From contig NIVC01002110.1 in NCBI GenBank assembly GCA_002269645.1, forward strand, positions 1-64,000: a stretch of 64,000 bases of DNA, read 5' to 3'. The first letter of the stretch is position 1, and every line of letters starts with the position of its first letter. The position numbers and the translations under genes were made by a program. Origin of the DNA: Macrostomum lignano. Its lineage: Eukaryota. Of the stretch, positions 1 through 21,864 are shown in pieces. The notes under the pieces are model-generated. The model made no database searches. It was given only the letters and a program-made list of their open reading frames with translations, and had not been told where the DNA came from.

Positions 1-3000
1 TTGCACCTTGCCGTTGCGGAACTGGCTTAGCAATTCCGATTGGCTTGTTTGGGTGATGCCGCCCTGGAGTGACGGTGGCGGCTAGTGAGCTGGCGTCTCC
101 CCTACTGTCTCACCATTGCTCCCTCTCGTCTCACCATTGCCCCCCTACTGTCTCACCATCGCCCCCTACTGTCTCACCATTGCCCCTACCGTCTCACCAT
201 TGCCCCCTACTGTCTCATCATTGCCCCCTACTGTCTCATCATTGCCCCCTACTGTCTCATCATTACCCCCTACTGTCTCACCATTGCCCCCTACTGTCTC
301 ATAATTGCCCCTACTGTCTCACCATTGCCCCCTACTGTCTCACCATTGCCCCCTCCTGTCTCACTATTGCCCCCCCCCTACTGTCTCACCATTGCCCCCT
401 ACTGTCTCACCATTGCCCCTACTGTCTCACCATTGCCCTACTATCTCACCATTGCCCCCTACTGTCTCATCATTGCCCCCCCCTGTCTCACCATTGCCCC
501 TCCTGTCTCACTATTGCCCCCCTACTGTCTCACCATTGCCCCCTACTGTCTCACCATTGCCCCCCTACTGTCTCACCATTGCCCCTACTGTCTCATCATT
601 GCCCCCCTACTGTCTCATCATTTCCCTCCCTACTGTCTCATCATTGCCCCCCCCTACTGTCTCATCATTGCCCCTCTACTGTCTCATCATTGCCCCCTAC
701 TGTCTCATCATTGCTCCCTACTGTCTCATCATTGCCCCCCCTTCTGTCTCATCATTGCCCCCCCTACTGTCTCCAAAAATACTAAATAAACTTCAAAAAG
801 CGACGCTCACTGAGTCCCCAGAAGCATTGGCGCCGGTTATGCCGATTTAAGCCGTACTCAGCTCGAAACAGCTTTTCCAGTAAAGCAGCTGCTGAACAAC
901 GCCCTGGAGTCCGGCTGGCGCTGGAACTGTTCGGCCAGGATCTGGCGCAGCTGATTCAGCGCTGGGCTGCAGCTGGCGGCGCTCAAGTTGCTGGCGCAGT
1001 AATCGCGCATCTGCGGCAGCAGGCGGCTCTGGAGGAGGTCGCGAAGTTCGGCGTCCGCGGACAGGTTGGGTCTCTGTGGAGCGCGGAGATGAGGCTTATA
1101 CGAGTATTATAGTGATGAAGCTGCTCTGATGCCTGAGGATCTCGGAGTCTGTCATCCCAATTCTGAGGATCTGTGGGAGTCTGTCATCCCAATTCTGAGG
1201 ATCTGTGGGCCTGTCATCTCAAATTCTGAGGATCTGTGGGCCTGTCATCTCAAATTCTGAGGATCTGTGGGCCTGTCATCTCAAATTCTGAGAATCTGTG
1301 GGCCTGTCATCTCAAATTCTGAGGATCTGTGGGCCTGTCATCCCAATTCTGAGGATCTGTGGGAGTCAAGTCATCCCAATTCTGAGGATCTGTGGGAGTC
1401 AAGTCAAACCCGAAACCCAAAGATAATCATAGCCCCACCTGCTAAGCACATTGGGATCGCACAGGTGCTCCTTAATATATTTCACAGCATCGTTGCTGCG
1501 GAACAGGCTCCATAGCAAGGTGGCCACATTGCAGTGGTGCAGCCGGACCCAAACTGCGGCTACTTCAACACTGCGAGCGACCAGTTTTGAGCGAAGTTCG
1601 CCGCCAGAAATTCGTATAGAGAAAACTGCTGCGCGCTGGGGGAGTCGGCGCTTGCAGCCTCAGCTTCTCGCATGCGGTTGCTAGGCCCTGAAATTGCATG
1701 TACATCCTATCTATACTATATAGTAATTTAGTTTGTTAAATAAATAAAGTAAACAGGAAACTTAAAATGTTTATTAAGTTGTTAGTGAATTAGAGTAGAG
1801 ATAAAAAATGGGTTGAAAATTTAAGGAGGGTATGGAGGGGAAAGGAGGAGAGGGTATGGTGGTGTTGTAACCCGGGTCGGCTTGGGTACCCAGTCCCGAG
1901 TACAATATATATTATATGTGATATAACAGGTGTTGTGACGCTCTGTCTGTACTTTTATGAATACGACGAGCAGGCGTGGCGACGCTCTGCGATAATAATT
2001 CGATCCCTCTGGTGTTGTGACACTCAGAGTTCACGCTGCGGCTCGAGGTGTGGTGACACTCTCGAGTGCTTCTATTCTCTATACCGTAGGGCGTACGCAA
2101 TATATATGGTAAACGGTACCGTACTACAGAAGCTATATGGTCTCCCGGCGTTATGACGCTCTGGCAAGAATCGGCCTAGCAAGCTTCCCGGAAAGAAAGG
2201 ACTCAAACAGCAGGCGGCTTACCAGTGGCCAGATGACTGTTCACCGTTTATTATTCGCAGGTCTCAAGCGCAGTTTCCGACTTCTTCTTAATTCTCCAAG
2301 ACTCTTCTCAATTAGGCTATTGTGTTTCTTTTATCCAAGTAGCTAATGTTGCTGTTTCTTTTATCGAAGTAGCTAATGTTGCTGTTTCTTTATCAGGTCT
2401 CGCGCTTGCACTCTCGGAGCACACCAAAACACAAAAAGCACGCAGGAGGCGGCAAGAGCCAGAGTCGCACCATAAATAGCACCCAAACCCTGGGGCAGAC
2501 GGCCCCACCGGCTAAGCTCACCAAAACAAACCACGCCGGCCCAGCCAATCAAAACCCCGCCTAAGGGGGAGGGGCTGCACCCGCGCCAAAGCTGGCCCGG
2601 CCGCAGCCAACCAGCCCTGAGCACGGGGCAGGGGCACGGCTGGGGAGGGGCACGCGCAAAGCCCGGCCGGGGCCAGACCCTGCCACGCCCGCCAACCCCC
2701 CCAACCAGCCCCAAAGTGCAACGCGCCCTGCCAACTGACAAGGGCGCATGCACTACACCCTCCCCTCCTACAAAAAAACAGGGCGGAGCTCGAACCACGG
2801 CGACTGGGATTCCAAATTTTTTAAATAACAAAGCAAAAAAAATCAAAAACAACAAAAAAAATTGGGAACAAACTAATGCAACAGGGAAAAGCAAAAAAAA
2901 AGGTTGCCGCAAGAGAAATATGAAAAAGGTACTAGTATTCTGCACGCGAGTTCGTCAGGAGCAACCACGGGGCACGGAATAGGCTTTCAAAGCTGGCGGC

Positions 3001-6000
3001 ACAGAAAACCATCGCAGGCGGCCGGCAGGACGAGCAGATGGCCGGGCGGGACGCGCAGGTTGCCGACAGGACGCGCAGATGGCCGGGCAGGAAGCGCAGG
3101 TTGCCGACAGGACGCGCAGATGGCCGACAGGGCACGCAGGTTGCCGACAGGACGCGCAGATGGCCGACAGGAAGCGCAGGTTGCCGACAGGACGCGCAGA
3201 TGGCCGACAGGGCACGCAGGTTGCCGACAGGACGCGCAGATGGCCGACAGGGCACGCAGGTGGCCGGCAAGACGCGAAGGCGGCCGGGCGAGGCGCGCAG
3301 ATGGCCGGGCGGGAAGCGCACGTGGCCGCCGCAGAAGCCGGCAGGAAGCGCAGGTGGCCGCCGCAGAAGCCGGCAGGAAGCGCAGGTGGCCGCCGCAGAA
3401 GCCGGCAGGAAGCGCACGTGGCCGCCGCACAGCTGCTGAGCCATTCCCCCAGGAAGCTTGACCCCACTAGCATGCAAATAAACCCATACAGTACGAGCGT
3501 AACAACATACATACAAGTAAGCAGAAAATACAGTATGAATCGGAACTGGGCACCCAGCGAACCCGAAGTCCAGGGAGACCGACGCAGCTTTTCAGGACCT
3601 CGAGCAGCCTGCCGGGCCGGCGCAAACCGAACAGCGGGATGAGCTCGTGACAGAGCTGTCGGACGAAACAATCAAAACTCTGCCTAGACCAGTAACGGCG
3701 GCCTGCTCTCTGACGCTTTACCGGAGCGATATCTCTGCGGATGAAGAACAACGCCTGCAGCAGGACCATTGACAGTGCGCTCCTCGGTTCTCGCTGCGAG
3801 TCTCGAAACAGCCGTCTCATAGCCGTGAGCACTGACACGATTCCGTCCGACTGTCCAGCCAAAATATGCTTCATCAAACGATGGCGGAGCTGACGCGCAG
3901 CTGCCGATAACGACAGCTTTTCATCATCCCATATTGCTCCCGACGCGCGATGTGAGACAACCTCCTTGCTTTCCGGTACATCGATCTCCATAGCTTCTGA
4001 CTCACTACTTCCGGAGGAGCCATCCGATGCCAGCAACTCGTCTTCTTCTTCTGTGTCGATGCTACACTCATCCGACTCCTCGCTCTCATCGTCGTCCGAG
4101 ATTAGAATGTAGCCATCCGCTTCGTAATCGTTCCTCTGTCCCTGTCTCCCCTGCCTGAGACCAGCTTCCTTGCGCTGAGCTTCTTCAACTTCTCGCCTTT
4201 GCTGTACTCCCTCTTCGATGTCCGCCGGCATTCTTACACCAGTAGGAGGTATGAACGTCATTGCGAAGGTTACAGCCTCGTCATACGGGATTGATTTATC
4301 GCCCAACTGGTCGTACATCGCTCGGCGATATGGACACGATAGAATTCTACCAGCAGTCTCAATTTCTTGGAAACGGCGTCCTGCGAGTTCCTTGTCCGGG
4401 TGCTTGTCCGGGTGCCAGAAGAGCGCTAGCTGTCGATAGACTCGCCTGATCTCGGCACGTTCGGCTGTGTGTCCGACTTGGAGGACAGCGTACAAATCCA
4501 TCTGCAAAGCAACGTACTCAAACCTGCGACACACTGTCCCTGACTCCAGATTCTACTCCTGCTCCCCTCTTGCCAGAGCGTCATCTCCTCGGACCGTGGC
4601 CCGCGGTACCCTGCATCGTAAAGTCCCAGCGCAAATTCGAGTTGTCACCGGATGCCAGTCCGAATACCCTCCACCGATGCATAGATTTTGTAGGCAAAAT
4701 TTGATTCTCGTCAAAACTTCGATGAAGATGCGATTAAAATGACTTAATGACGCATTAACGAATTTCTTGAATGACGCATTGGCGAACTGCTCGTACTCAT
4801 GATGAATGATGCATTGATGAAGTACTCGTATTTATGATGAATGACGCATTCGCGAAATATTTTTCTGGCTTTTAACGATAATCGCATATGAAACTGATGA
4901 GACTTCACGATGACGAGTAACCCATTAGAATGTCACTGGCTGGCCGTAGCGATCCGGCGGCCGTCGCAACCTTCCGGACCTTCGAGGCTCAGGTGCAGCT
5001 TCCACCGGGTTATGAGTAGGCTGCGGGTCGTCAACCAACTCCATCTGCTCTTCCAGCACCTCGGCGACTTCCTCGGCGTCCTGTGGCGGCATCAGTTGAG
5101 GCCGAGTCCAAGTCTCGCATTCCGCCTCTGTCTCCGAGTCCGTCTCGTCGACCACCTCCGGCGGTGCCGCGGTCCTAACTGGTGTTTCCAGGGCGGCCGG
5201 TCGAGCGAACTTCCGGAGGTTGTTGAAGTGGACGAACTTCGACTTTTTACGATTTGACGGGTTTTCCACTTTGAAGAGCACCTCGGATCTTCTTTCGAGC
5301 ACCTTCACTGGGCCGAGCCAGCTTACGTGAAACTTTGCGGCTTCGTCTGGTTTCAGGGCGGGGCTGTAGACGAAGACATGGTCACCCTCCTGAATATCGG
5401 ATCCTCGGGTTCTTTTATCGTACTGGTCCTTCTGTCGCCGCTGATAAGTATTCAACTGCTGTCGAGCAGCGCGATGAGCTGTCTGCAATTTGTCTTCTAG
5501 CTCCTTGACGAAATTTACATGCGAATCGACAGGCTGTGGCGGCTGGTCAGTCAAGTCTATCGGTAGGCGCATCTCCGTGCCATAGACCATGTAGTGGGGA
5601 GTATAACCCGTTGCTCGATGCACGCTTGATCGGTACGCCATTAACGCAGAGCTGACGAATTCTTCCCAGTCGTTTCGTCCTGAGTCCTCTAGGCAGCACT
5701 TGAGGATGGATTTTAAACTTTTATTGAAGTTTTCTACTTGTCCATTTCCGCTCGGATGATAAGCTGTGTTCTGGACTTGCGGATCTCGAGTATCCTGCAC
5801 ATTTCGCGCATCACTTGCGATTCGAAGTTCCTTCCTTGGTCACTGTGCAAAGTACTCGGACATCCATGCTGGCTAATCCATCGATTGAAAAGCGCCCTTG
5901 CCACCGTCCTTGCCTTCTGGTTGCGAAGCGGGTACGCGTCAGGCCACTTCGTAAACGAATCTTGGACTGTCAGGAGATAAATGTTTCCAGCCTTACTCCG

Positions 6001-9000
6001 CGGTAGCGGCCCGACAATGTCCATCATGACGCAATCGAATGGTGCTGCGAATGTCAACGGTTGCAGGGGTGCTCGGTTTCGCTTGCCCGGCTTTGACTTG
6101 CAGCAGGTGGCACAACCGCGAATATATTCTTCAATGGCACGAGACAATCCTGGACGCCAGTAGCGCTGAAGCACTTTAAATTTTGTCTTCGCAAAGCCCA
6201 TGTGGCCACCTCCCACTCCCTCGTGTAGGGTTTTCAAGATACGATCCAATGCCTTTCGTGGCAGCACCATTTGATACTCATCGCGCCTGTCTTTGTTTCT
6301 CACAAGGAGCACGTTCTCTTGCAGCACCAGGTCGTCTTTTCGAGTCCAGACGGCTCTAGCCAGTGGACTCCAAGCTGTCTCGCTTTTATCTGGAACTGGG
6401 TTTGAGCCAAGCGCTTCCTTTACTGTTCTCAAATCGTCGTCTTGATCCTGCTCGCTTGCCAGATTGCCGGCTGAGAATCGTTCAAATTCGACTGCATTTA
6501 GTCCTTCTGGATGCTGCGCACATGCCGGGCATGTCTCCGCTCCGAAATGTCTCCGTACTGGCTTCCTCGACATTGCGTCCGCGTTGCCATGCGATCGACC
6601 TGGTCTGTGAACGATGCGGTACTGAAATGGAGCCAACTTCTCCAACCAGCGAGCAACCTGTCCCTCGGCGTCACTGAAGTTTTTTAACCATTGCAGGCTG
6701 CTGTGGTCCGTTCGCAGACAGAACGCTTTTCCAGCAGATAGTATCTGAACTTCATGATGAAAGTCACAACCGCTAGTAGTTCTAAACGAGTCGTACAATA
6801 GTTGCGTTCGGCTTGATTTAGTGTCTTGGACCCATAGGCGATCACTCGTTCTGCTCCATCTGGCTGGACTTGAGAAAGTACCGCTCCTATGCCCATCTTC
6901 GAACTGCCATCAGTATCGAGGATAAACTCTCCGGCATCCGGGGAGAAATCCGGATGAGCCATAACCTCTGAACTTGTCATTCGTTCCTTCAATGTTTCGA
7001 ACGCCAGCTGCTGTTCCGTTTTCCATTCAAACTTTGCGTCTTTTGTTGTCAACGAGTTAGAGGCGCTGCTATTGCGGCGAAATCTTTAATAAACTTTCTG
7101 TAATAGCCACACAGGCCCAAGAATGAATGCAGCTCCGTCGAGGATCGCGGTGTTGGCCAGTTCTTCACTTCTTGAACTTTCTCCTCATCGGTACTGATGC
7201 CAGCAGCCGACAGCGTGTGACCGAGAAATTTCACTTGCTTTTGCAAAAAGTGACACTTCTGGGGCTTCAGGCACAAATTTGCTTGCCGCAACTTGCTGAA
7301 TATTTCCTCCAGTCTTCTCAGGTGTTCATCCACGTCGGTTGACCAAACCAGTAGATCGTCGATGTAGACGAGACAGGTTTTCCACATCTGCTTGTCCAAA
7401 ACGGCTGCCATCAACCTGGTGAATGTTGCTGGGCTGTTCACTAAGCCGAACGGCATAACCTTCCATCGAAATTGTCCGCGATGCGGCACTGCAAACGCCG
7501 TCTTGTCCTGATCCTGAGGTCTCACCCCTACTTGCCAAAACCCGCTGTGAAGGTCCATTGTCGAGAAGATCTTGGCGCCGTGTACTGCCTCCAGCGCATC
7601 ATCGACCCTCGGCATCGGCACTGCATCCTTGACGGTGACCTCATTCAACTTCCGATAATCGACGCACATCCTCATTTCCCCTGATTTCTTCTTTACGCAC
7701 ACCAAAGGAAAGCACCATGGTGACTGTGCTTCTTCGATCTGCCCCTTTTCCAGCAACTCGTTGACTTGACGATCTACTTCTGGCTGTAAGTGGGGAGGCA
7801 GACGACGCGGTGGGATCTTGATTGGGCGCGCATTCTCGGTGTTAATTTCATGCTCCACCACGGTAGTTAACTTGCTTGAAGTCTGCTTGGTCGTGAACAC
7901 ATCGCCGTAACTCCGGACAAGGATTCTAAATTCTTCGTCTTCTTTCGTCGACAGTCCACAGTCGCCGTACGAGTTTGGTAGCAAGTCTGCTTCCGAAGGG
8001 CTGTCGCTGCCTTGGAACTTCGGCTCTTCCTGTGGATCGTCTCCTGACTCTACGGCTAAGAGCTTGATGGTGTTCAACGGTTCGGTGGATTCTAGGGGGC
8101 AGAACCACCCGAGCGTACAACCTTGGCGAATTCTGACTGGCTCCTCCGTGATATTGATGAGTCGAGTCGGCAGACGGCTGCCGCTATTTGGGATCACTAA
8201 GGCCTTAGCAAGCCAGCGGCCAGCTGCCAAATCGTTCGCCCCGAGATTCTCAGTTAGACCGACACACCCTCTGTTCCGTCGTCCTTTGCTCTCCAGCCTT
8301 GCTGACAGAACTGCTTGATGACCTGGCGGTATTGTGCTGGACCTTGTCGCCAAAATTCTGCAAACGATCGGGCGCTCAGCTTGCCATCGGAACGGGATTG
8401 CAGTGTCCTGCACTGAAAAGACAGCTGTCTTGTAGTCGATGACGCAACTGTTGTCCCTGCAGAAGTCGGATCCCAATACCAGTTGGTACTTCACTCCGCT
8501 GACTACCAAGGCTGGAGTATCTATTACTTTATCAGCGATTGACAGTCGCAACAGGACTGTCCTCTCGATTTCGATCGGGCTGCCGTTTGCTAAGCTAACG
8601 TAGCCTTCAGCACCGGCCAAATCTCTGACGCTCTGTTTCGGCATACTTTGGTAAGCTTCCCGTGAGATAATGGTGCAGGAAGCTCCCGAGTCCACTAGCG
8701 CGTTCACCCTCCGCCCTGCGATTGAGGCCGTAACATATATCGACGCAGGATTGATTTGAATTGACTGAGGTGCGTTGACGGTGATTGGGCGCTGCGACTG
8801 TGCAAAACCGGCTAGTTGATGGTGAGGTGCAGTACCGGACGCTGGGGGCTGATGAGGCACTGTACCGGACACTGGAGGCTGATGAGACGCTGTACCGGAC
8901 ACTGGAGGCTGATGAGACGCAGTACCGGACACTAGAGGCTGATGAGACGCAGTACCGGACACTGGATGCTGATGAGACGCAGTACCGGACACTGGATGCT

Positions 9001-12000
9001 GATGAGACGCAGTACCGGACACTGGATGCTGATGAGATACTGTACCGGACACTGGAGGCTGATGAGACGCAGTACCGGACACTGGATGCTGATGAGATAC
9101 TGTACCGGACACTGGAGGCTGATGAGACGCAGTACCGGACACTGGAGGCTGATGAGACGCTGTACCGGACACTGGATGCTGATGAGGCGCAGTACCGGAC
9201 ACTGGAGGCTGATGAGACGCAGTACCGGACACTGGATGCTGATGAGATACTGTACCGGACACTGGAGGCTGATGAGACGCAGTACCGGACACTGGATGCT
9301 GATGAGATACTGTACCGGACACTGGGGGCTGATGAGGCACTGTACCGGACACTGGATGCTGATGAGACGCAGTACCGGACACTGGATGCTGATGAGGCGC
9401 AGTACCGGACACTGGATGCTGATGAGGCGCAGTACCGGACACTGGATGCTGATGAGGTACTGTACCGAACACTGGATGCTGATGAGACGCAGTACCGGAC
9501 ACTGGAGGCTGATGAGACGCTGTACCGGACACTGGATGCTGATGAGGCGCAGTACCGGACACTGGATGCTGATGAGACGCAGTACCGGACACTGGAGGCT
9601 GATGAGACGCTGTACCGGACACTGGATGCTGATGAGGCGCAGTACCGGACACTGGATGCTGATGAGCCGCAGTACCGGACACTGGATGCTGATGAGGTAC
9701 TGTACCGGACACTGGAGGCTGACGAGACGCAGTACCGGACACTGGAGGCTGATGAAGCGCGGTACCGGACACTGGATGCTGATGAGGCGCAGTACCGGAC
9801 GCTGGAGGCTGATGAGGCGCAGTACCGGACACTGGATTCTGATGAGGCGCAGTACCGGACACTGGAGGCTGATGAGATGCGGTACCGGGCGTTTGATGAT
9901 GATGAGATGAGATGACGGCTTGTTCGGAGGCTGACGAATTGCAGGGGCTCACTTGCCTCCAGCTGGTGGGCCCCTCTTGCCTTTTCCCGGCTTTGGGCAC
10001 TGGAATGAGAGATGGCCTATCTCCCCGCAGTTGTAGCACTTGACACCACTACGCTGCTTCGAGCTGGACGGAGCCGCCTGCTTGGATTGTTGCTTGTCTT
10101 GAAGGCCGGGTTCGGGCGGCTCCTGCTGGCCCTGCTGCATCTGCTCCATCCGTCGGATCTTTTCTTCCATTTTCTTTACTTTTTGACGCAGTTGGCGTAG
10201 CTCCTCGTCTTTGCCGGTGTCACCTGTCGACGTTTCGGTGGCAAAGGCATTCAGCCCAGCCCTGGGTCTGGCTTTGGACTGGGTCGAAGACGCCTTCTGG
10301 GCTGCTTCAAGTTGTCTTACTGTTCGAATGGCATCGGTGAGGTTGGCCCGCTGCTGCAGGTACAGTCTTTCTCGGACAGTGTCGGTTACTCGAACGCCTT
10401 TTAGAAATCTGTCTTTCGCCAGCTCTGTCCTGGTGTCGGCATCCGCGGTGGGGAAGGCATTGCGCACCAACTCCAGCAGCTCGTCCCCGTAGGTCTCCAC
10501 AGACTCCTTGTCTAGCTGATCTCGATTCGATAATTCAAAACGGTAGTCCTGGGCTGTTCTGTTCATGGTGAACCGCGCCAGTAGTGCATCCGTGAATTCC
10601 CCGTACTCGATGTCGTCTGCCAAGTCCAGCTTATCAACGGCAGCGTAGGCTGTTGTGAGGTCGAGTAGGCCGATCAGGTGCGGCCGCCTGGCTTCTTCTT
10701 CTATACCGACAGCCTCGCAGTACTCGTTGAAACTCTGCAGCCATAGGCTGAAATTCATCGTTGGTATGTACTTGGGCGGCTTCGAGAGTCGTGGCGCTGC
10801 TCGGTCGGCGTTGGCTCTGAGGCGCGCAGCCAGCGCATCGATCAGTTGGTCCATAGCTTGATCACCCATGGCCGAAGTCACTGAATACCGTTGCTACTCT
10901 TTACTCTGAGGTGGTGATAGCTATCGATCTCTGATAACCAATCAGTTGTCTGTCACCGTGATCAATGTCTTTTGTGGTAGGGCAATAGCCGCAAGCGATA
11001 AGCAACAGTCGTTTTAATAAGAAAAAACGCTCACAATATGACAGCAATTTTCATAGAAAGCAACTGAGCCGACTTTCAATCTTTGGGGACAGGGTCCCTG
11101 TTCGGGCGCCAATTTGTTGTAACCCGGGTCGGCTTGGGTGCCCAGTCCCGAGTACAATATATATTATATGTGATATAACAGGTGTTGTGACGCTCTGTCT
11201 GTACTTTTATGAGTACGACGAGCAGGCGTGGCGACGCTCTGCGATAATAATTCGATCCCTCTGGTGTTGTGACACTCAGAGTTCACGCTGCGGCTCGAGG
11301 TGTGGTGACACTCTCGAGTGCTTCTATTCTCTATACCGTAGGGCGTACGCAATATATATGGTAAACGGTACCGTACTACAGAAGCTATATGGTCTCCCGG
11401 CGTTATGACGCTCTGGCAAGAATACGGCCTAGCAAGCTTCCCGGAAAGAAAGGACTCAAACAGCAGGCGGCTTACCAGTGGCCAGATGACTGTTCACCGT
11501 TTATTATTCGCAGGTCTCAAGCGCAGTTTCCGACTTCTTCTTAATTCTCCAAGACTCTTCTCAATTAGGCTATTGTGTTTCTTTTATCCAAGTAGCTAAT
11601 GTTGCTGTTTCTTTTATCGAAGTAGCTAATGTTGCTGTTTCTTTTATCAGGTCTCGCGCTTGCACTCTCGGAGCACACCAAAACACAAAAAGCACGCAGG
11701 AGGCGGGCAAGAGCCAGAGTCGCACCATAAATAGCACCCAAACCCTGGGGCAGACGGCCCCACCGGCTAAGCTCACCAAAACAAACCACGCCGGCCCAGC
11801 CAATCAAAACCCCGCCTAAGGGGGGAGGGGCTGCACCCGCGCCAAAGCTGGCCCGGCCGCAGCCAACCAGCCCTGAGCACGGGGCAGGGGCACGGCTGGG
11901 GAGGGGCACGCGCAAAGCCGGCCGGGGCCAGACCCTGCCACGCCCGCCAACCCCCCAACCAGCCCCAAAGTGCAACGCGCCCTGCCAACTGACAAGGGCG

Positions 12001-15000
12001 CATGCACTACAGTGGGGTAAGAAGGGAGAGGGTATGGTGGGGTAAGAAGGGAGAGGGTATGGTGGGGTAAGAAGGGAGAGGGCATGGTGGGGTAAGAAGG
12101 GAGAGGGCATGGTGGGGTAAGAAGGGAGAGGGCATGGTGGGGTAAGAAGGGAGAGGGTATGGTGGGGTAAGAAGGGAGAGGGCATGGTGGGGTAAGAAGG
12201 GAGAGGGCATGGTGGGGTAAGAAGGGAGAGGGCATGGAGGGGTAAGAAGGGAGAGGGTATGGTGGGGTAAGAAGGGAGAGGGTATGGTGGGGTAAGAAGG
12301 GAGAGGGCATGGTGGGGTAAGAAGGGAGAGGGTATGGAGGGGAAAGAGGCAAGAGGGTAGGGAGGAGACATGAAAGATAAGATGGTACTACAGAGAGATA
12401 GAGGATACGAAAGATTGAGAAGTTGCTGGAGACAAGAGAAAATAGAGAAAAGATAGATTAAAAAGATACCCACCTGCTCAGCCCGGTCCATCAGCAGGTC
12501 CAAGCACTGTAGAACATCGTCGCTCTGTTTCCTACCAGTGCTATGCAGCTTAACTCTCGGATTATTCACGTGCTTATGCAAAGAATCCGCGCAGCTTTTC
12601 ACGCTAACTAATCGTTTACAGTCGAGACTGGCGCATAGGCCAAGCACGTGATCCATAGCCTCCTCCGTGTTGTGAGCCTGCCCGGTGCCCGGACTGGCTG
12701 TCAGGCCGACTATTTGCGGCAGGCGAAGGCCGGGCGACTGCTGCTGCCGCTCCTTCAGCTGGTCACGGTGACGGAGGCAATGATTAACATGGCATTTTAT
12801 AATTATAGCTTCTCTGTGATTCTTCTTAGTTTATTATTGTGAAAAGCTTTCAATATGACTTATTGGTGCTTTAGTGACCTCCCCTACGAGTCCTCTTCCT
12901 CAGAGATGCTTCAGTGATCTCCCCTATGAGTCCTCTTCCTCATAGGTGCTTCAGTGACCTCCCCTATGAGTCCCCTCCGTCAGAGGTGCTTCAGTGACCT
13001 CCCCTAGGAGTCCCCTTCCTCAGAGGTGCTTCAGTGACCTCCCCTATGAGTCCTCTTCCTCAGAGGTGCTTCAGTGACCTCCCCTACGAGTCCTCTTCCT
13101 CAGAGATGCTTCAGTGATCTCCCCTATGAGTCCTCTTCCTCATAGGTGCTTCAGTGACCTCCCCTATGAGTCCCCTCCGTCAGAGGTGCTTCAGTGACCT
13201 CCCCTAGGAGTCCCCTTCCTCAGAGGTGCTTCAGTGACCTCCCCTATGAGTCCTCTTCCTCAGAGGTGCTTCAGTGACCTCCCCTATGAGTCCTCTTCCT
13301 CAGAGGTGCTTCAGTGACCTCTCCTATGAGTCCTCTTCCTCAGAGGTGCTTCAGTGACCTCCCCTATGAGTCTTCTTCCTCAGAGGTGCTTCAGTGACCT
13401 CTCCTAGGAGTCCCCTTCCTCAGAGGTGCTTCAGTGACCTCTCCTAGGAGTCCCATTCCATAGGAGTGTACAGCGGCCCTGACTTTATTTATCGTTAGGC
13501 ATGTACACTTCACTGTGCCTTAGGGGTTGGCCCTCAATGGCGTTAACTGCCCAAAATTAATGTGACTGCATTCGGAATCGAGCCTGGGCCGCTGGCACAC
13601 CAGAGCGCCACGCTAGACCACTGGGCTACGGCCACAACCTACCTGAAAGTAGTACTCCATAATCTTGTTAGACGGGTGATCCTTGGCGCAGTTGTGACAC
13701 TCGTCGAATATAATGAGTTTGAACTTTGTCAAATCGCCATTTAGACCGTCTTCGTCTTTGTCCTTTAAACTGTTGAGCAGAATCTGGGTGCTCACTATGA
13801 GCACAGAGTGATGACGAAGCTGGTAGCTGAGCGGAGCGCGTTCGCCTTCGCCTCCAGTGACGGGAGAAATCCTGCAAATTGTGTTTTTGTAATATATTGA
13901 TTTAAACTAGCATTTCAATACATGTCGGCTGTTGAAACATTCTCGAACTTTACATACTACTGTTTTATCGCTTTTAAGTAGTATACACATATAGTTAGAA
14001 AACTCAATTATTAACTCAACAGCAAAATCCCTAATCTCAAAACTGCCAAATCCCCAATCTCAAAACTGCCAAATCCCCAATCTCAAAACTGCCAAATCCC
14101 CAATCTCAAAACTGCCAAATCCCCAATCTCAAAACAACAAAATCCCCAATCTCAAAACAGCCAAATCCCCAATCTCAAAACAGCAAAATCCCCAATCTTA
14201 AAACTGCCAAATCCCCAATCTCAAAACAGCCAAATCCCCAATCTCAAAACTGCCAAATCCCCAATCTCAAAACAGCAAAATCCCCAATCTCAAAACTGCT
14301 AAATCCCAATCTCAAAACTGCCAAATCCCCAATCTCAAAACTTCTAAATCCCAATCTCAAAACTGCCCAAACCAGATATTTATAAAACCATCGAATAAAA
14401 ACTTGAGTATGATAAACAGTGAGCACAGTGAAAGCAGAGCACACCCGCCAACTTACTTATCTCTAAATCTAGCCGGCAGTTGAGCTTTAAAGGCTTCGTA
14501 CTGCTGCTCAACCAGATGCTTCCTATCGGCCAGAAAGCACACCGAGCATCCGGGTCTTCTTCTAACCGAGCTCCGGCTATCCTGATGCTGACCAGAGTCT
14601 TGCCCGAACCTGTTGGCGCCACGATCACCGAGTTGAGGCCGGCCACCCCGCTGGCAGCCAGCTCCTCCTGGTACACCCGCATCTGCTGGATGCCCGACTG
14701 AGCTGCCTCCTGATCCACTTCCTTGATGAGCTTGTCTTAAATGCGGTAAAATTATATCACAGGGTTGAAAATGTTTGAAAATCTTAAATACTAAAATCCC
14801 TAATCATAATCATATAATCCCAAATCCTTAACTCCCAAATCCCTAACTATAGAATCTCAAATCCCTAACTATAGAATTAGAATCCCAAATCCCTAACTAT
14901 AGAATCTCAAATCCCTAACTATAGAATCCCAAATCCCTAACTATAGAATCTCAAATCCCTAACTATAGAATCCCAAATCCCTAACTACAGAATCCCAAAT

Positions 15001-17868: not shown

Positions 17869-18778
17869 TTTATATATAGTAAGCTTACTGTGATAGCCAG
17901 ATCTTTGAAATAAATTATACTTTTATAGGCACAATAAATACTTGTCAGTTAGAAAGGCAAGTGACAAGTGACAAAATCCAAAAGGATTTTGGCACAGATA
18001 TATTATGTAATCTAAGCTTGTGTTGCATGCCTGTAAGAGTAAGACTGCAGCGCCAATATTTATGAATATAAAGTTTTCGCTTTTAAACGCAGATGGAATG
18101 GAATTTCCAAGAAATTTTGTGAATTTTCGTACGCAAGGGGAGTTTGGTGTACATTAGCTCCTTAGTGTACAATTGTACTTAAATAATGTACATCAAGCTT
18201 TTACAGCCTGGAGTGAAAGGAACTATAAATAGAATAGAACATTGTATGGAGCGAAATGTACACACAATCCCGACTTTGTGGAAACTGGTATAGCCCCTCC
18301 TGTTTCTGCTCATGTTATTATACTAAAAGCCCATCCACGTTAGGGTTAGGGTTAGGGGAAGGACAAATAAAGCAAGGTATATATTCATATATATGAATAC
18401 TATTTTAGTAGTCTTTACCCGGGTTAGGATCTACGAACTTTGCCAGCCGGAAGGTTGCCAGCCGGAAAGAATTGCCATATGCAGCCGGAAGGTTGCCAGC
18501 CGGAAGAAGGTTGCCTGCCAGCCGGCAGGTTGCCAGGCCAAGAAAATTTGCTGCAAAATAGCTACCAGGTCAGAATGTCAGCTGCTGTCTAATTTTACAA
18601 TTATAATAAATTAAGAGCTGAAGTAGCAATATACTAATGCATTTCAGGTATATTTACAGGTATTTACAGGTATTTACACGCATTTACACGCATTTACAGG
18701 TATTCGATCAGGCTGCATAAAACCTTTACTTTTAGCAATTGTATTTAGCAAGCTTTTTAGCAATACAATATGTGCAAT

Positions 18779-18979
18779 CAGGGGCGGATTTAGGGGGGGG
18801 GGGCGGCAAAATAGCTTGACAGAACATATTGCGCGGTTTGCGCTACCTAAGCTTGATTTTTCGCCCCCTCCACGCAATTTTTGCGCTCCTAGCTTAAAAA
18901 TTGGCGCCCCTTATACTCGAGTTGGCGCCCCAAACTTGGACCGCCCCCCCCCCCAAATGAAACTCTAGATCCGCCACTG
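18779..18979. mobile_element. hAT-family MITE (201 bp)
   Basis: TIR CAG(G/T)GGCGGAT(T/C)TAG; exact 8-bp TSD TGTGCAAT. Confidence 0.92.
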
Positions 18980-18996
18980 TGTGCAATATTTGCTTA

Positions 18997-20818
18997 CATC
19001 CCGGCGGTAAAAATCACGTCGAAATGACGTCGAAAAGCGACGTCGAAATTTCATGTCGATTTGAACCACGATTTCGACGTCGAAATTTTCGCCATCAGAT
19101 GTAGAGTGTGCGACGTCGCGTTTTCCACTATTGATGGCGAAAAGTCGACGTCGTTCATATTCATGATGACCGCAAGTAGATGGCGATTTTCGACAAATTG
19201 ACGATTTTTATCTACATATACTAATTAATATTAATAATATACTGTAGTGCATTAGTTTCATATAGTTATAAAAAGTTATTTTTTTCAATAGTCATAAACT
19301 GACGAACTACATGTACGATCTACAAACGAACTAAGCTGACGAAACATAAATGTTAATCCATACACTAAAGTCACTAATCTACCTAAATAGGAAAGAAATA
19401 TTTAAGCATAAAATGCCAAGCAAGGCTGCATGACGTTTCATTTGCTATCCAAACCAGATCCTATTATCCTGCAACCATGAAAAAGTATACAGTGTATATT
19501 CAATTCACCAGCAATTGGAAACGATCATAGAAATAGCATCAAAGCTATCAAGAATAGAAAATAGACGATGGAAAAATAAGGAACAACAATGTCAACAAAT
19601 GCAACTAAATGTAATTCAACAAATTGTAATCGTGAAAGGGAAACACTGAAAATCAACGGCGTCTGCGTGGTTACTCCACACGGAAATTCAGCTTTTGCGT
19701 CTTGTGCGGTCACGTAGGACGTCCTCAGCCGCCGAGTTGACAGAGGGGCATTTGCTGGAATTTTTGGTAGAGTAAGCAGCGGCTTTACTAAACAAGTAAA
19801 ATACTATACAATGTTCTATATATTCCTGGGCCATATAGAGCATTTATAAAAGTTTTTATAGCATAGTTACATAGTATATCCTGTTTTCATTACATAGAAA
19901 AAATAGATAATTATAGTATGAGTAGTATTTCATGCTCTAGATGCTGGCGATAAGGTACTTAAATGCTATAGCTGTTCTAGTTATTTCATGAGCAGTTATG
20001 GGTTGGGCTATGCTTTTATTTAGAATGTAACAAACATATATTAGAATGAATAATTAAATAATTAATGTTTAAATGGGATAATTATATATACTATTTAGGC
20101 TAAAATTATAATTACGTCTATGTCCTAAATGTCCTAAAAATTTTTTCATAACAAACATTCTTTTAGCTATAGAATTGTGCTTTTATTACATTTATAAAAG
20201 CTAATCTATTATTGTTTATTAAATATTACACTATTATTAATTTCCAATAAGCTGTACTAAAACGTAAAAAGTTGCTAATTTATGGCTACTTTATTATTAA
20301 TTCACTTATCCTGTATAAAAAGTTAAACCTATCCGTCCTATAAGCAACAGTATTATAAAACATCGAACTTTAAACGCATAAATTGTATATCACATTAATT
20401 ATCGAAAAAATAATGAAACGCAATGAAAGAATATGAATTGCCATGTTTGTTACAGAAAATTTACGTTAAAGATTTACGTATGAATCGCAGTAAAATAATT
20501 TGGAAGTCTGCAATTGACAAATAATAGATCGACATTCAGCATGGCTATATTTTTAAAAAGGTGTATCTCGCGATGCGTTGAAACAAAAAAAACGTTGTGT
20601 CAGTTTTACTGAATTTATTGATCCTTTCAATACACTGAAAATCACGTTGAAAAAATATTTTTCAAATATCACTAATAATTATTTCTGCAAAAAAGAAGAT
20701 AAAAATTTCATATCGAAATTTCGACGTCAAATGAAGGTTCAAACGACTACTCATTTGTCGCAAGTTTTTGAAAGGCGAATATCGACGTCATTTCGACGTG
20801 ATTTTTACCGCCGGGATG
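18997..20818. mobile_element. 1.8-kb non-autonomous DNA transposon with perfect 37-bp TIRs
   Basis: TIR CATCCCGGCGGTAAAAATCACGTCGAAATGACGTCGA at both ends; TA flanks (or an AT TSD if the ends are CCCGGC); AT-rich interior with no ORF. Confidence 0.9.
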
Positions 20819-21864
20819 TATGTACCAACACCAAGCAACTAAGCTCTTAACTGCTTCAGTCATTTTGCAACAAAATATGCAGATACACTATTTCTTTTCA
20901 GTCACATGCATTCGATTGCTAATAGTTTTTTTTAAAATACAAGTTTTATGCAGCCTAATTTAATAAATAAATGCATTGTATACTTCAGCTTTTATAATTG
21001 ATTTGATTATAATTGTAAAATTAGACAGCTGCTCAAATTGAGAGCTGGTACCTTTCTTACTGCAAATTTTCTCGGCTGGCAACTTTCCGGCTTGCAACTT
21101 TCCGGGTGGCAACCTTCCGGGTGGCAACCTTCCTAGCTGGCAACTTTCGGCTGGCAATTTTCCTGCTTGCGACCTTCCTACTGGCAACTTTCCGGCTTGC
21201 AACTTTCGGCTGGCAACTTTCCGGCTGGCAACCTTCCTGGCTGGCAACTTTCTGGCTGGCAACTTTCCGGCTGGCAACCTTCCTGGCTGGCAACTTTCCG
21301 GCTGGCAACCTTCCTGGCTGGCAACTTTCTGGCTGGCAACCTTCCTGGCTGGCAACTTTCGGCTGGCAATTTTCCAGCTGGCAACCTTCCTGGCTGGCAA
21401 CTTTCCGGCTGGCAACCTTCCGGCTGGCAACCTTCCGGCTTGCAACCTTCCTGGCTGGCAACTTCCCGGCTGGCAACCTTCTCGGCTGGCAATTCTAGGG
21501 CTGGTTGTTAATATTTGTAGCCAAATTTTACGGATATTTGAAAATATTTTTGCGATGACGCGTTAATGTGCAAGTCAATTGTGATTCTTTTAGTAATGGA
21601 ACATTGCGTCCATTAAGTGTGACAGATTTCAAGTTTCGATGTAGATGGAATTTTTAATTACAGGTCTTCGCTGGCTATCTGACCAAGGTTATTGATTTCA
21701 TACAATCTTAAAATATCAATCTTATTTGCGTCCTCATTGGGATCATATGAAGACCTTCTAATTATTTCTACATTAACGTTGACAGATGTTTTTAAAGAGC
21801 TTTTTAAAAAATTCCCTATTTCTATGAACGTCTTCAGTCAAGTCAATAATCAGTTAGTTAAAAA

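Follow-up and report, generated by a model that had tools for sequence, protein, structure and literature searches.

A J-domain gene behind the integrase in a clade of Ty3/gypsy retrotransposons of the flatworm Macrostomum lignano

INTRODUCTION

Some long terminal repeat (LTR) retrotransposons carry an additional open reading frame (ORF3) that is not env. Bdelloid elements encode a DEDDy exonuclease and a GDSL esterase (PMC5408684), an orchid LTR retrotransposon carries an AlkB ORF (PMC9289625), and such extra genes are a known kind (see also PMC6338049). Why they persist is an open question, and few transposon-encoded counter-defence proteins are known in animals. Here we analyse a 64,000-nucleotide stretch of the Macrostomum lignano genome (assembly GCA_002269645.1, contig NIVC01002110.1, positions 1 to 64,000; hereafter the window) in which a Ty3/gypsy element, belonging to what we call family A, encodes behind its integrase an ORF3 protein with a DnaJ-type J-domain. 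The trees and the selection show that ORF3 is a genuine accessory gene belonging to a flatworm Ty3/gypsy clade, which acquired it once and has passed it on together with pol. It resembles the bdelloid and orchid genes in being a captured cellular domain in a separate ORF after the integrase, lineage-specific, gained and lost, and the TatD-like additions of some flatworm families parallel the bdelloid DEDDy exonucleases; it differs in its cargo, a predicted Hsp70 co-chaperone that has, besides the J-domain, a new helical domain and exchangeable reader modules.

An earlier note on the window, made from the sequence alone, knew of no gypsy lineage encoding a J-domain, and the literature that we searched points the same way. 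The word DnaJ does not occur in the main text of PMC5408684 and PMC9289625, no DnaJ or J-domain cargo appears in the text of PMC13524379 and PMC3248453, and a full-text literature search returned no description of an LTR retrotransposon with a DnaJ ORF, the repeat databases Repbase, Dfam and GyDB lying outside that search and a brief earlier mention being possible.

Other systems share parts of the arrangement. Polyomavirus large T antigen likewise has an N-terminal J-domain with an HPD motif, followed by a disordered region with short host-binding motifs (PMC11720896). The T-antigen likeness proposed earlier stands as one of logic but goes no further: LxCxE occurs in 1 of 19 flatworm sequences, no origin-binding or helicase domain was found in them, the carrier is a retroelement and not a DNA virus, and no homology beyond the J-domain was seen. 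The C. elegans element Cer1, an LTR retrotransposon, has in CERV an accessory nuclear protein whose mRNA is spliced (PMC10309623), features that ORF3 would share if its predicted localisation and splicing are right; in contrast, the abstract of that article mentions no J-domain for CERV. In plants, J-proteins are brought to silenced chromatin by readers and act for or against silencing, DNAJ1/2 (SDJ) with SUVH1/3 and SILENZIO with MBD5/6 (PMC11694752), but there the J-proteins are encoded by the host and the reader is another protein, whereas ORF3 would join J-domain and reader in one element-encoded chain. Finally, chromoviruses are Ty3/gypsy elements with a chromodomain, as is our lineage D, but theirs lies at the integrase end, whereas in the flatworm elements it lies inside ORF3 and in one lineage only.

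RESULTS

ORF3 is read in the window as a single open frame of 344 amino acids (3467..4501; minus strand, as for all stranded features below). It lies 423 nt behind the integrase stop (4925), on the gag/pol strand and ahead of the polypurine tract (2758..2769), and it is flanked by the 3' LTR (1863..2757, 895 bp) and the 5' LTR (11115..12011, 897 bp, TG...CA), outside which stands a 4-bp target-site duplication (1859..1862, other copy 12012-12015, no strand assigned). This is in good agreement with the earlier note, which had described an uninterrupted same-strand ORF of about 344 amino acids between the integrase stop and the polypurine tract and 3' LTR, inside both LTRs; what changes is the usual length. 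In 1000 shuffles of the 3' spacer no open frame reached 315 codons (mean longest, 140). Searching the M. lignano genome with family A gave 118 matches. Among 25 distinct family-A loci with a start codon, 13 end at residue 315 and 20 are open through it; four give 344 amino acids (representing three insertions, since C2467 shares that of the window), three read through to 496-566 amino acids and five are broken. The contigs of all four public runs differ from the window near 3555 and yield the 315-residue form, and in the orthologues A2 and P0277 the protein ends there as well. The usual family-A product is 315 amino acids long, corresponding to the conserved core (residues 1-315, 3557-4501), and the last 29 residues in the window (3467..3556) are a minority read-through tail. 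Read-through variants (L005, L006, L008 and window 3467-3556) gain a hydrophobic tail (Kyte-Doolittle 2.1-2.3), probably by accident.

At 28 loci the reverse transcriptase (RT) is 99-100% identical, and 24 of these carry ORF3 downstream, the other four being broken off or deleted in or just after the integrase. Loci L032, L035, L056, L063, L065 and L068 have ORF3 with no pol match in the fetched stretch and are deleted or non-autonomous remnants.

The J-domain (4310..4498, HPD at 4406-4414) is complete and its HPD intact, as had been claimed: Pfam DnaJ matches residues 2-64 with an E value of 6e-18. AlphaFold2 predicts a J-domain with extra helices (pLDDT about 95, and about 97 for the J fold), a disordered linker at residues 126-191 and a five-helix C-terminal domain (CTD); the predicted J fold matches solved J-domains, with four helices and the HPD loop. 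Post-J helices conserved across families (4142..4309) are followed by the disordered acidic linker (3929..4141) and the basic CTD (3581..3928), which has no significant family or fold match and includes a conserved basic loop (3686..3724), a candidate nuclear localisation signal or nucleic-acid contact. Both the acidic tract and the PVKRQR motif reported earlier are present as stated. Family G and single decayed copies have lost the HPD, and the pI of the CTD is 9.6-11.9 in 12 of 12 sequences. The features of class A and B DnaJ proteins (a G/F-rich region, a zinc finger and beta-sandwich C-domains) are not found, PF00226 being the sole match and an acidic linker and all-helical CTD standing in their place. 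Comparisons of the CTD do not establish a new fold: the best fold match, to AppA SCHIC, has a Z of 7.9 (rmsd 2.2, 80 aligned), a value that common helical bundles also reach, the best hit in BFVD has an E value of 0.99, and the PDB sequence matches are designed helices. DnaJ-X proteins (PF14308) resemble ORF3 in having an N-terminal J-domain and a later helical domain, and theirs is the Atlas cluster nearest to the CTD; the lead was rejected, as its score of 0.77 is below chance level and 0 of 12 CTD sequences match PF14308 at E<=10. Atlas yielded no further match to the CTD.

Within the linker lies a stretch resembling a SUMO-interacting motif (SIM), with a hydrophobic core, a serine and an acidic run (4079..4111). 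The pattern, picked after the data had been seen, occurs in 13 of the 17 linkers, where shuffles would lead one to expect 1.45, and is missing solely in the three proteins that bear a chromodomain and in that of family G, whose J-domain has no HPD. In complex predictions, host SUMO paired with linker residues 115-160 reached a score of 0.44 and the best control one of 0.03, a result graded as weak support; the runs agree in at least 86% of contacts, with a partner pLDDT of 50. The mark used is reached by 51 of the 78 solved pairs and by 2 of the 108 mismatched ones, it is passed with scores of at most 0.60 by just 5 of the 78 solved pairs but by all 4 passing mismatches, and passes of this test are more often wrong than right unless the pairing is likely beforehand. 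SUMO-SIM complexes have solved structures, so this pass may reflect the predictor's memory of them.

The position of ORF3 is that of env, as the earlier note had it, but the character of a transmembrane glycoprotein is not: no transmembrane-like stretch was found in the 17 normal forms (highest Kyte-Doolittle 19-residue mean <=1.57), and there is no env Pfam match in the element.

Relatives of ORF3 at 27-35% identity are present in at least seven diverged families of the M. lignano genome, in six of which (B, C, D, E/E2, F and G) they stand behind the integrase between paired LTRs, with an RT core 52-64% identical to that of the window. The families have in common the layout of J-domain, post-J helices, acidic linker and CTD. 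A full stop-free match is found at 14 loci of family C, and open frames of at least 331 amino acids at 18 loci of family D. Lineage D has a chromodomain between J-domain and CTD (Pfam E 1e-12), whose nearest structures are HP1, Swi6, CDY and MPP8. Families E and G append a degenerate TatD-like domain to ORF3, and H keeps the TatD-like part alone (L161:5660-7372 for G, L045, L158, L159 and L164); in this candidate TatD nuclease domain (Pfam E 1e-7 to 1e-4, PDB E 0.002) the GEMGLD-type motif reads GEAELD. Family G has about 20 near-identical RT copies.

Trees place this gene in a single lineage. After the removal of 14 of 51 RT rows (long branches, near-duplicates and truncated loci), the families with a J-domain ORF3 form one clade of 18 rows in the tree of 37 (support 95/90); the SH support is 91 with all 51 rows, from which L036 had been left out as too short. 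No J or CTD match occurs in seven more distant loci of the same genome (L163, L165-L170), and a metagenome scan with a pol alignment found none at 80 gypsy loci, many of them incomplete and the P0010 and P0011 contigs not reached. In 100% of bootstrap trees the 17 retro-J domains make up one side of a branch that separates them from 21 further J domains of the genome, which is the comparison with host DNAJ genes that had been proposed; no host donor was resolved on 80 columns, on which the bootstrap had not settled. The simplest history would be a single capture followed by vertical inheritance together with pol, with modules gained and some losses along the way. Copies, families, trees and selection together bear out the idea that the ORF is copied with the element and is not a one-off transduction. 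No outcome that the earlier note had named as speaking against its proposal was encountered.

A profile search of 1.84 billion representatives gave, among its best 150 proteins, eight that match well beyond the J-domain. Three of these are M. lignano gene models fusing ORF3 to pol pieces; the other five come from Logan or JGI assemblies, and we infer that these orthologues are from related flatworms. The best matches in G000 are 46% for P0130 and 56% for P0277 (a cluster mate of P0135); against the family representatives only, the best are 40% for P0129, 33-35% for P0132 and 76% for P0133. P0132 and the pol P0011, each on a 7008-base contig and both grouping with family B, are likely one element. 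A word-index homologue search with the 315-residue protein gave four matches, in the J-domain only, and scans of IMG/VR with the ORF3 alignment and with P0132 gave no match.

Across copies and relatives, dN/dS is far below 1 in every computable pair. By the Nei-Gojobori method on separate open stretches, ORF3 of A against A2 gives 0.185 (confidence interval 0.12-0.28; J-domain 0.11, CTD 0.24), B against B 0.24, B against B2 0.18, C against C2 0.14-0.35, the C-half of D against D2 0.35, and E against E2 0.09-0.11, with 0.19 for the TatD part. The overall range for ORF3 is 0.09-0.35 and every whole-gene interval excludes 1, the high dS making the ratios rough; the intervals of three small slices reach 0.69-1.8, and saturated dS gave no ratio for the N-half of D against D2, several post-J slices and the RT of E against E2.

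Between the window (A) and L041 (A2), dS is 1.17 for ORF3 and 0.17 for RT and integrase (IN). Because of this difference, we conclude that the ORF3 cassette has probably been exchanged between A and A2 by recombination, independently of pol. D and D2 share a near-identical CTD end, likewise pointing to cassette exchange. The primer-binding sites (PBS) of families A-I are of at least four types within the clade, indicating primer switching.

Directly before the ORF3 ATG stands a pyrimidine-rich tract with CAG (4502..4515), a candidate splice acceptor for cis-splicing or for spliced-leader trans-splicing. YAG is found immediately 5' of the ATG in 5 of 9 family starts, as compared with 52 of 2073 ATGs in these elements (2.5%), and families A-D have donor-like GTGAG sites after the PBS. 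From these two signals, ORF3 is probably made from its own short subgenomic mRNA, spliced at the acceptor adjoining the ATG. About 30% of M. lignano genes receive by trans-splicing a leader ending in AUG (PMC8629364), which makes leader addition an alternative to cis-splicing. Contigs of four presumed-RNA runs covering ORF3 and pol have neither a joint nor a loose end at the candidate acceptor; contigs drop rare forms and cannot show absence, so they speak neither for nor against splicing or expression. In E and E2 (L050:5990-6010 and L057:5965-5985) there is no ATG at the aligned J start and the CAG is kept just upstream, so the start codon may arise by splicing.

The element carrying ORF3 in the window has the make-up of Ty3/gypsy: paired LTRs (TG...CA), PBS, polypurine tract and target-site duplication, with gag followed by protease, RT, RNase H and IN. 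Over 899 columns, the LTR pair differs by 2 substitutions and 6 one-base gaps. A pol protein with the species annotation Macrostomum lignano shows full identity to that of the element along the aligned stretch. The PBS (11094..11111) we take to be of tRNA-Lys type, presumably as in Osvaldo. A Retrotrans_gag-like gag with a CCHC knuckle (9949..10869) precedes pol (4925..10048), the frame of which is broken in the window copy near 7050, 6730 and 5765; since the contigs from public runs differ from the window at all three places, these breaks are probably assembly errors. In the pol frame ahead of the protease lies a 30-bp tandem repeat (HQPPVSGTAS-type, 8800..9900), with 31 units in the window and 15-30 at seven further loci; in family D the start of gag carries an Ala/Gly repeat instead. 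A slippery-heptamer-like run near 9975-9985, by the end of gag where the gag and pol frames overlap, is a candidate -1 frameshift site. The 3' untranslated part contains 20-bp tandem repeats (2990..3430). The family-A LTR has a perfect TTCCCGGAA at 2185-2193 and at the same place in the 5' LTR, which we take to be a STAT/GAS-type site; a scan of 13 other LTR stretches did not find it, and it may be due to chance.

The insertion site is a tract of short repeats inside or next to a RIG-I/DDX58-like helicase gene that has the same strand as the element, with minus-strand exons in 11568-14736, of which 13616-13906 matches RIG-I (E 1e-11). Elsewhere in the window, 18537-21076 has inverted repeats (45-74 nt, with about 2 kb between them) that may represent a small DNA transposon. 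The genome also has an unrelated intronless ORF of 1449 amino acids with an N-terminal J-domain (L189:2223-6572, minus strand), found in five places, and candidate Polinton/adintovirus-like ORFs, read from translation, inserted in a family-D relative (L157:1618-4423, minus strand).

DISCUSSION

In this study we have described a J-domain protein encoded by a clade of flatworm retrotransposons. From the HPD and the predicted fold it very probably recruits Hsp70, and its basic CTD may give nuclear entry and/or nucleic-acid binding; a site of action in the nucleus is likely. Tentatively, we favour a reading by analogy in which ORF3 would be a nuclear adaptor bringing Hsp70 to SUMO- or H3K9me-linked silencing complexes. 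As a class-C-type J-domain adaptor, it would recruit and stimulate host Hsp70 through the J-domain, and a swappable reader module, SIM-like in most families and an HP1-like chromodomain in lineage D, would select the target. Hsp70 would be delivered to silencing complexes, whether SUMO-modified or H3K9me-bound, that sit at the element's own loci or on its nascent RNA, and the loosening of these complexes would let the element be transcribed, turning the T-antigen logic of a J-domain plus a short target motif on transposon silencing. SUMO-dependent piRNA silencing (10.1101/533091) and the J-domain and LXCXE of T antigen (PMC11720896) serve as precedents, as do J-proteins of plants that bind readers of methylated DNA (PMC11694752). 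The full proposition, in which a clade-wide J protein reads SUMO (or, in one lineage, H3K9 methylation), dismantles silencing at its own loci via the chaperone and is made from a subgenomic mRNA that perhaps uses the spliced leader, is doubtful when taken as a whole.

Several observations weigh against this silencing reading. The 17 rows are related, so the mutual exclusion of SIM and chromodomain counts as about one event plus G, and the SIM pattern was, as said, chosen after the fact. At what we take to be the cage positions of the chromodomain, the first and second aromatics are present in D, D2 and P0133, the third in D2 alone, and gypsy chromodomains are best known for integration targeting. 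The TatD-like domain of E, G and H fits nucleic-acid processing better than anti-silencing. The gene is, moreover, dispensable in parts of the clade: L154/L156 and L162 lack it, L158/L159/L164 retain the TatD-like part alone, and in family G it has lost its HPD (five loci or locus pairs were too truncated to score for presence).

The same nuclear pointers, the lineage-D chromodomain and the basic CTD, would also suit an integration helper, which travels with the pre-integration complex, anchors it on chromatin via SIM or chromodomain and uses Hsp70 to dismantle the strand-transfer complex, on the model of ClpX taking apart the stable MuA complex. The TatD-like domain in E, G and H could then trim or bind DNA ends. 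We nevertheless consider this unlikely, as ORF3 is separate and not an integrase fusion in intact-looking families, and the apparent swapping of its cassette independently of pol (A against A2, dS 1.17 vs 0.17) argues against tight co-adaptation with integrase. A Rev- or CERV-like factor, nuclear and made from spliced mRNA, whose CTD binds unspliced genomic RNA while Hsp70 remodels the ribonucleoprotein for export and packaging, would account for the acceptor by the ATG and for the GTGAG after the PBS in A-D, given that unspliced RNA must escape splicing; the basic CTD agrees with it, and CERV of Cer1 is its precedent (PMC10309623). It is quite unlikely in our estimation: the chromodomain is left unexplained, and families with no ORF3 have moved recently (LTR identity 99.5% for L154 and 100% over the part compared for L158), unless they were complemented in trans.

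Host Hsp70 and Hsp40 aid retroelement particles, and an intact HPD and J fold are also what a cytoplasmic chaperone would need, be it for Gag and Gag-Pol folding, for assembly or uncoating of virus-like particles, or as an aid under heat stress, some M. lignano LTR elements being heat-induced (PMC12801592). However, a nuclear site is what the SIM, the chromodomain and the basic loop suggest, and families with no long Gag-Pol repeat still keep the J-domain ORF3. The earlier suggestion that ORF3 folds the repeat-expanded Gag-Pol fails on this very point, because C and D, with about 110-140 nt between their gag and protease matches, have retained it. As for heat, a scan of LTR stretches from 14 clade loci, several of them only partial, turned up no canonical heat-shock element, and the start of the LTR of the heat-induced Mlig-id38, classed as Gmr1/Osvaldo (PMC12801592), matches L163, which carries no J-domain ORF3 and whose RT, 53% identical, yet falls outside the clade (the RT trees held no named reference elements); the supplements of PMC12801592 name no DnaJ-bearing element. 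A role in particle assembly is less favoured than a nuclear one, and the cytoplasmic account as a whole is improbable. Scarcely credible is a neutral passenger, a host DNAJ gene transduced recently, or a family of host genes taken by mistake for cargo. Losses and HPD decay in some families would fit it, but it is already largely refuted by dN/dS far below 1 in every computable pair, the retro-J domains are monophyletic and separate from the remaining J domains of the genome, among which no donor could be resolved, and the gene is intronless and lies inside LTR pairs with different flanks.

For M. lignano, a large share of the J-domain matches in the genome are transposon cargo, and public gene models fuse ORF3 to pol fragments as 'J domain-containing protein'. 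Across one clade of elements, a J-domain is coupled to interchangeable chromatin-type readers, and the variants found in nature (with SIM or chromodomain, without HPD, with an added TatD, without the gene) are a ready comparison series in an animal with transgenesis and RNAi. If the silencing reading is true, retrotransposons would have converged on the T-antigen use of Hsp70 to break host complexes.

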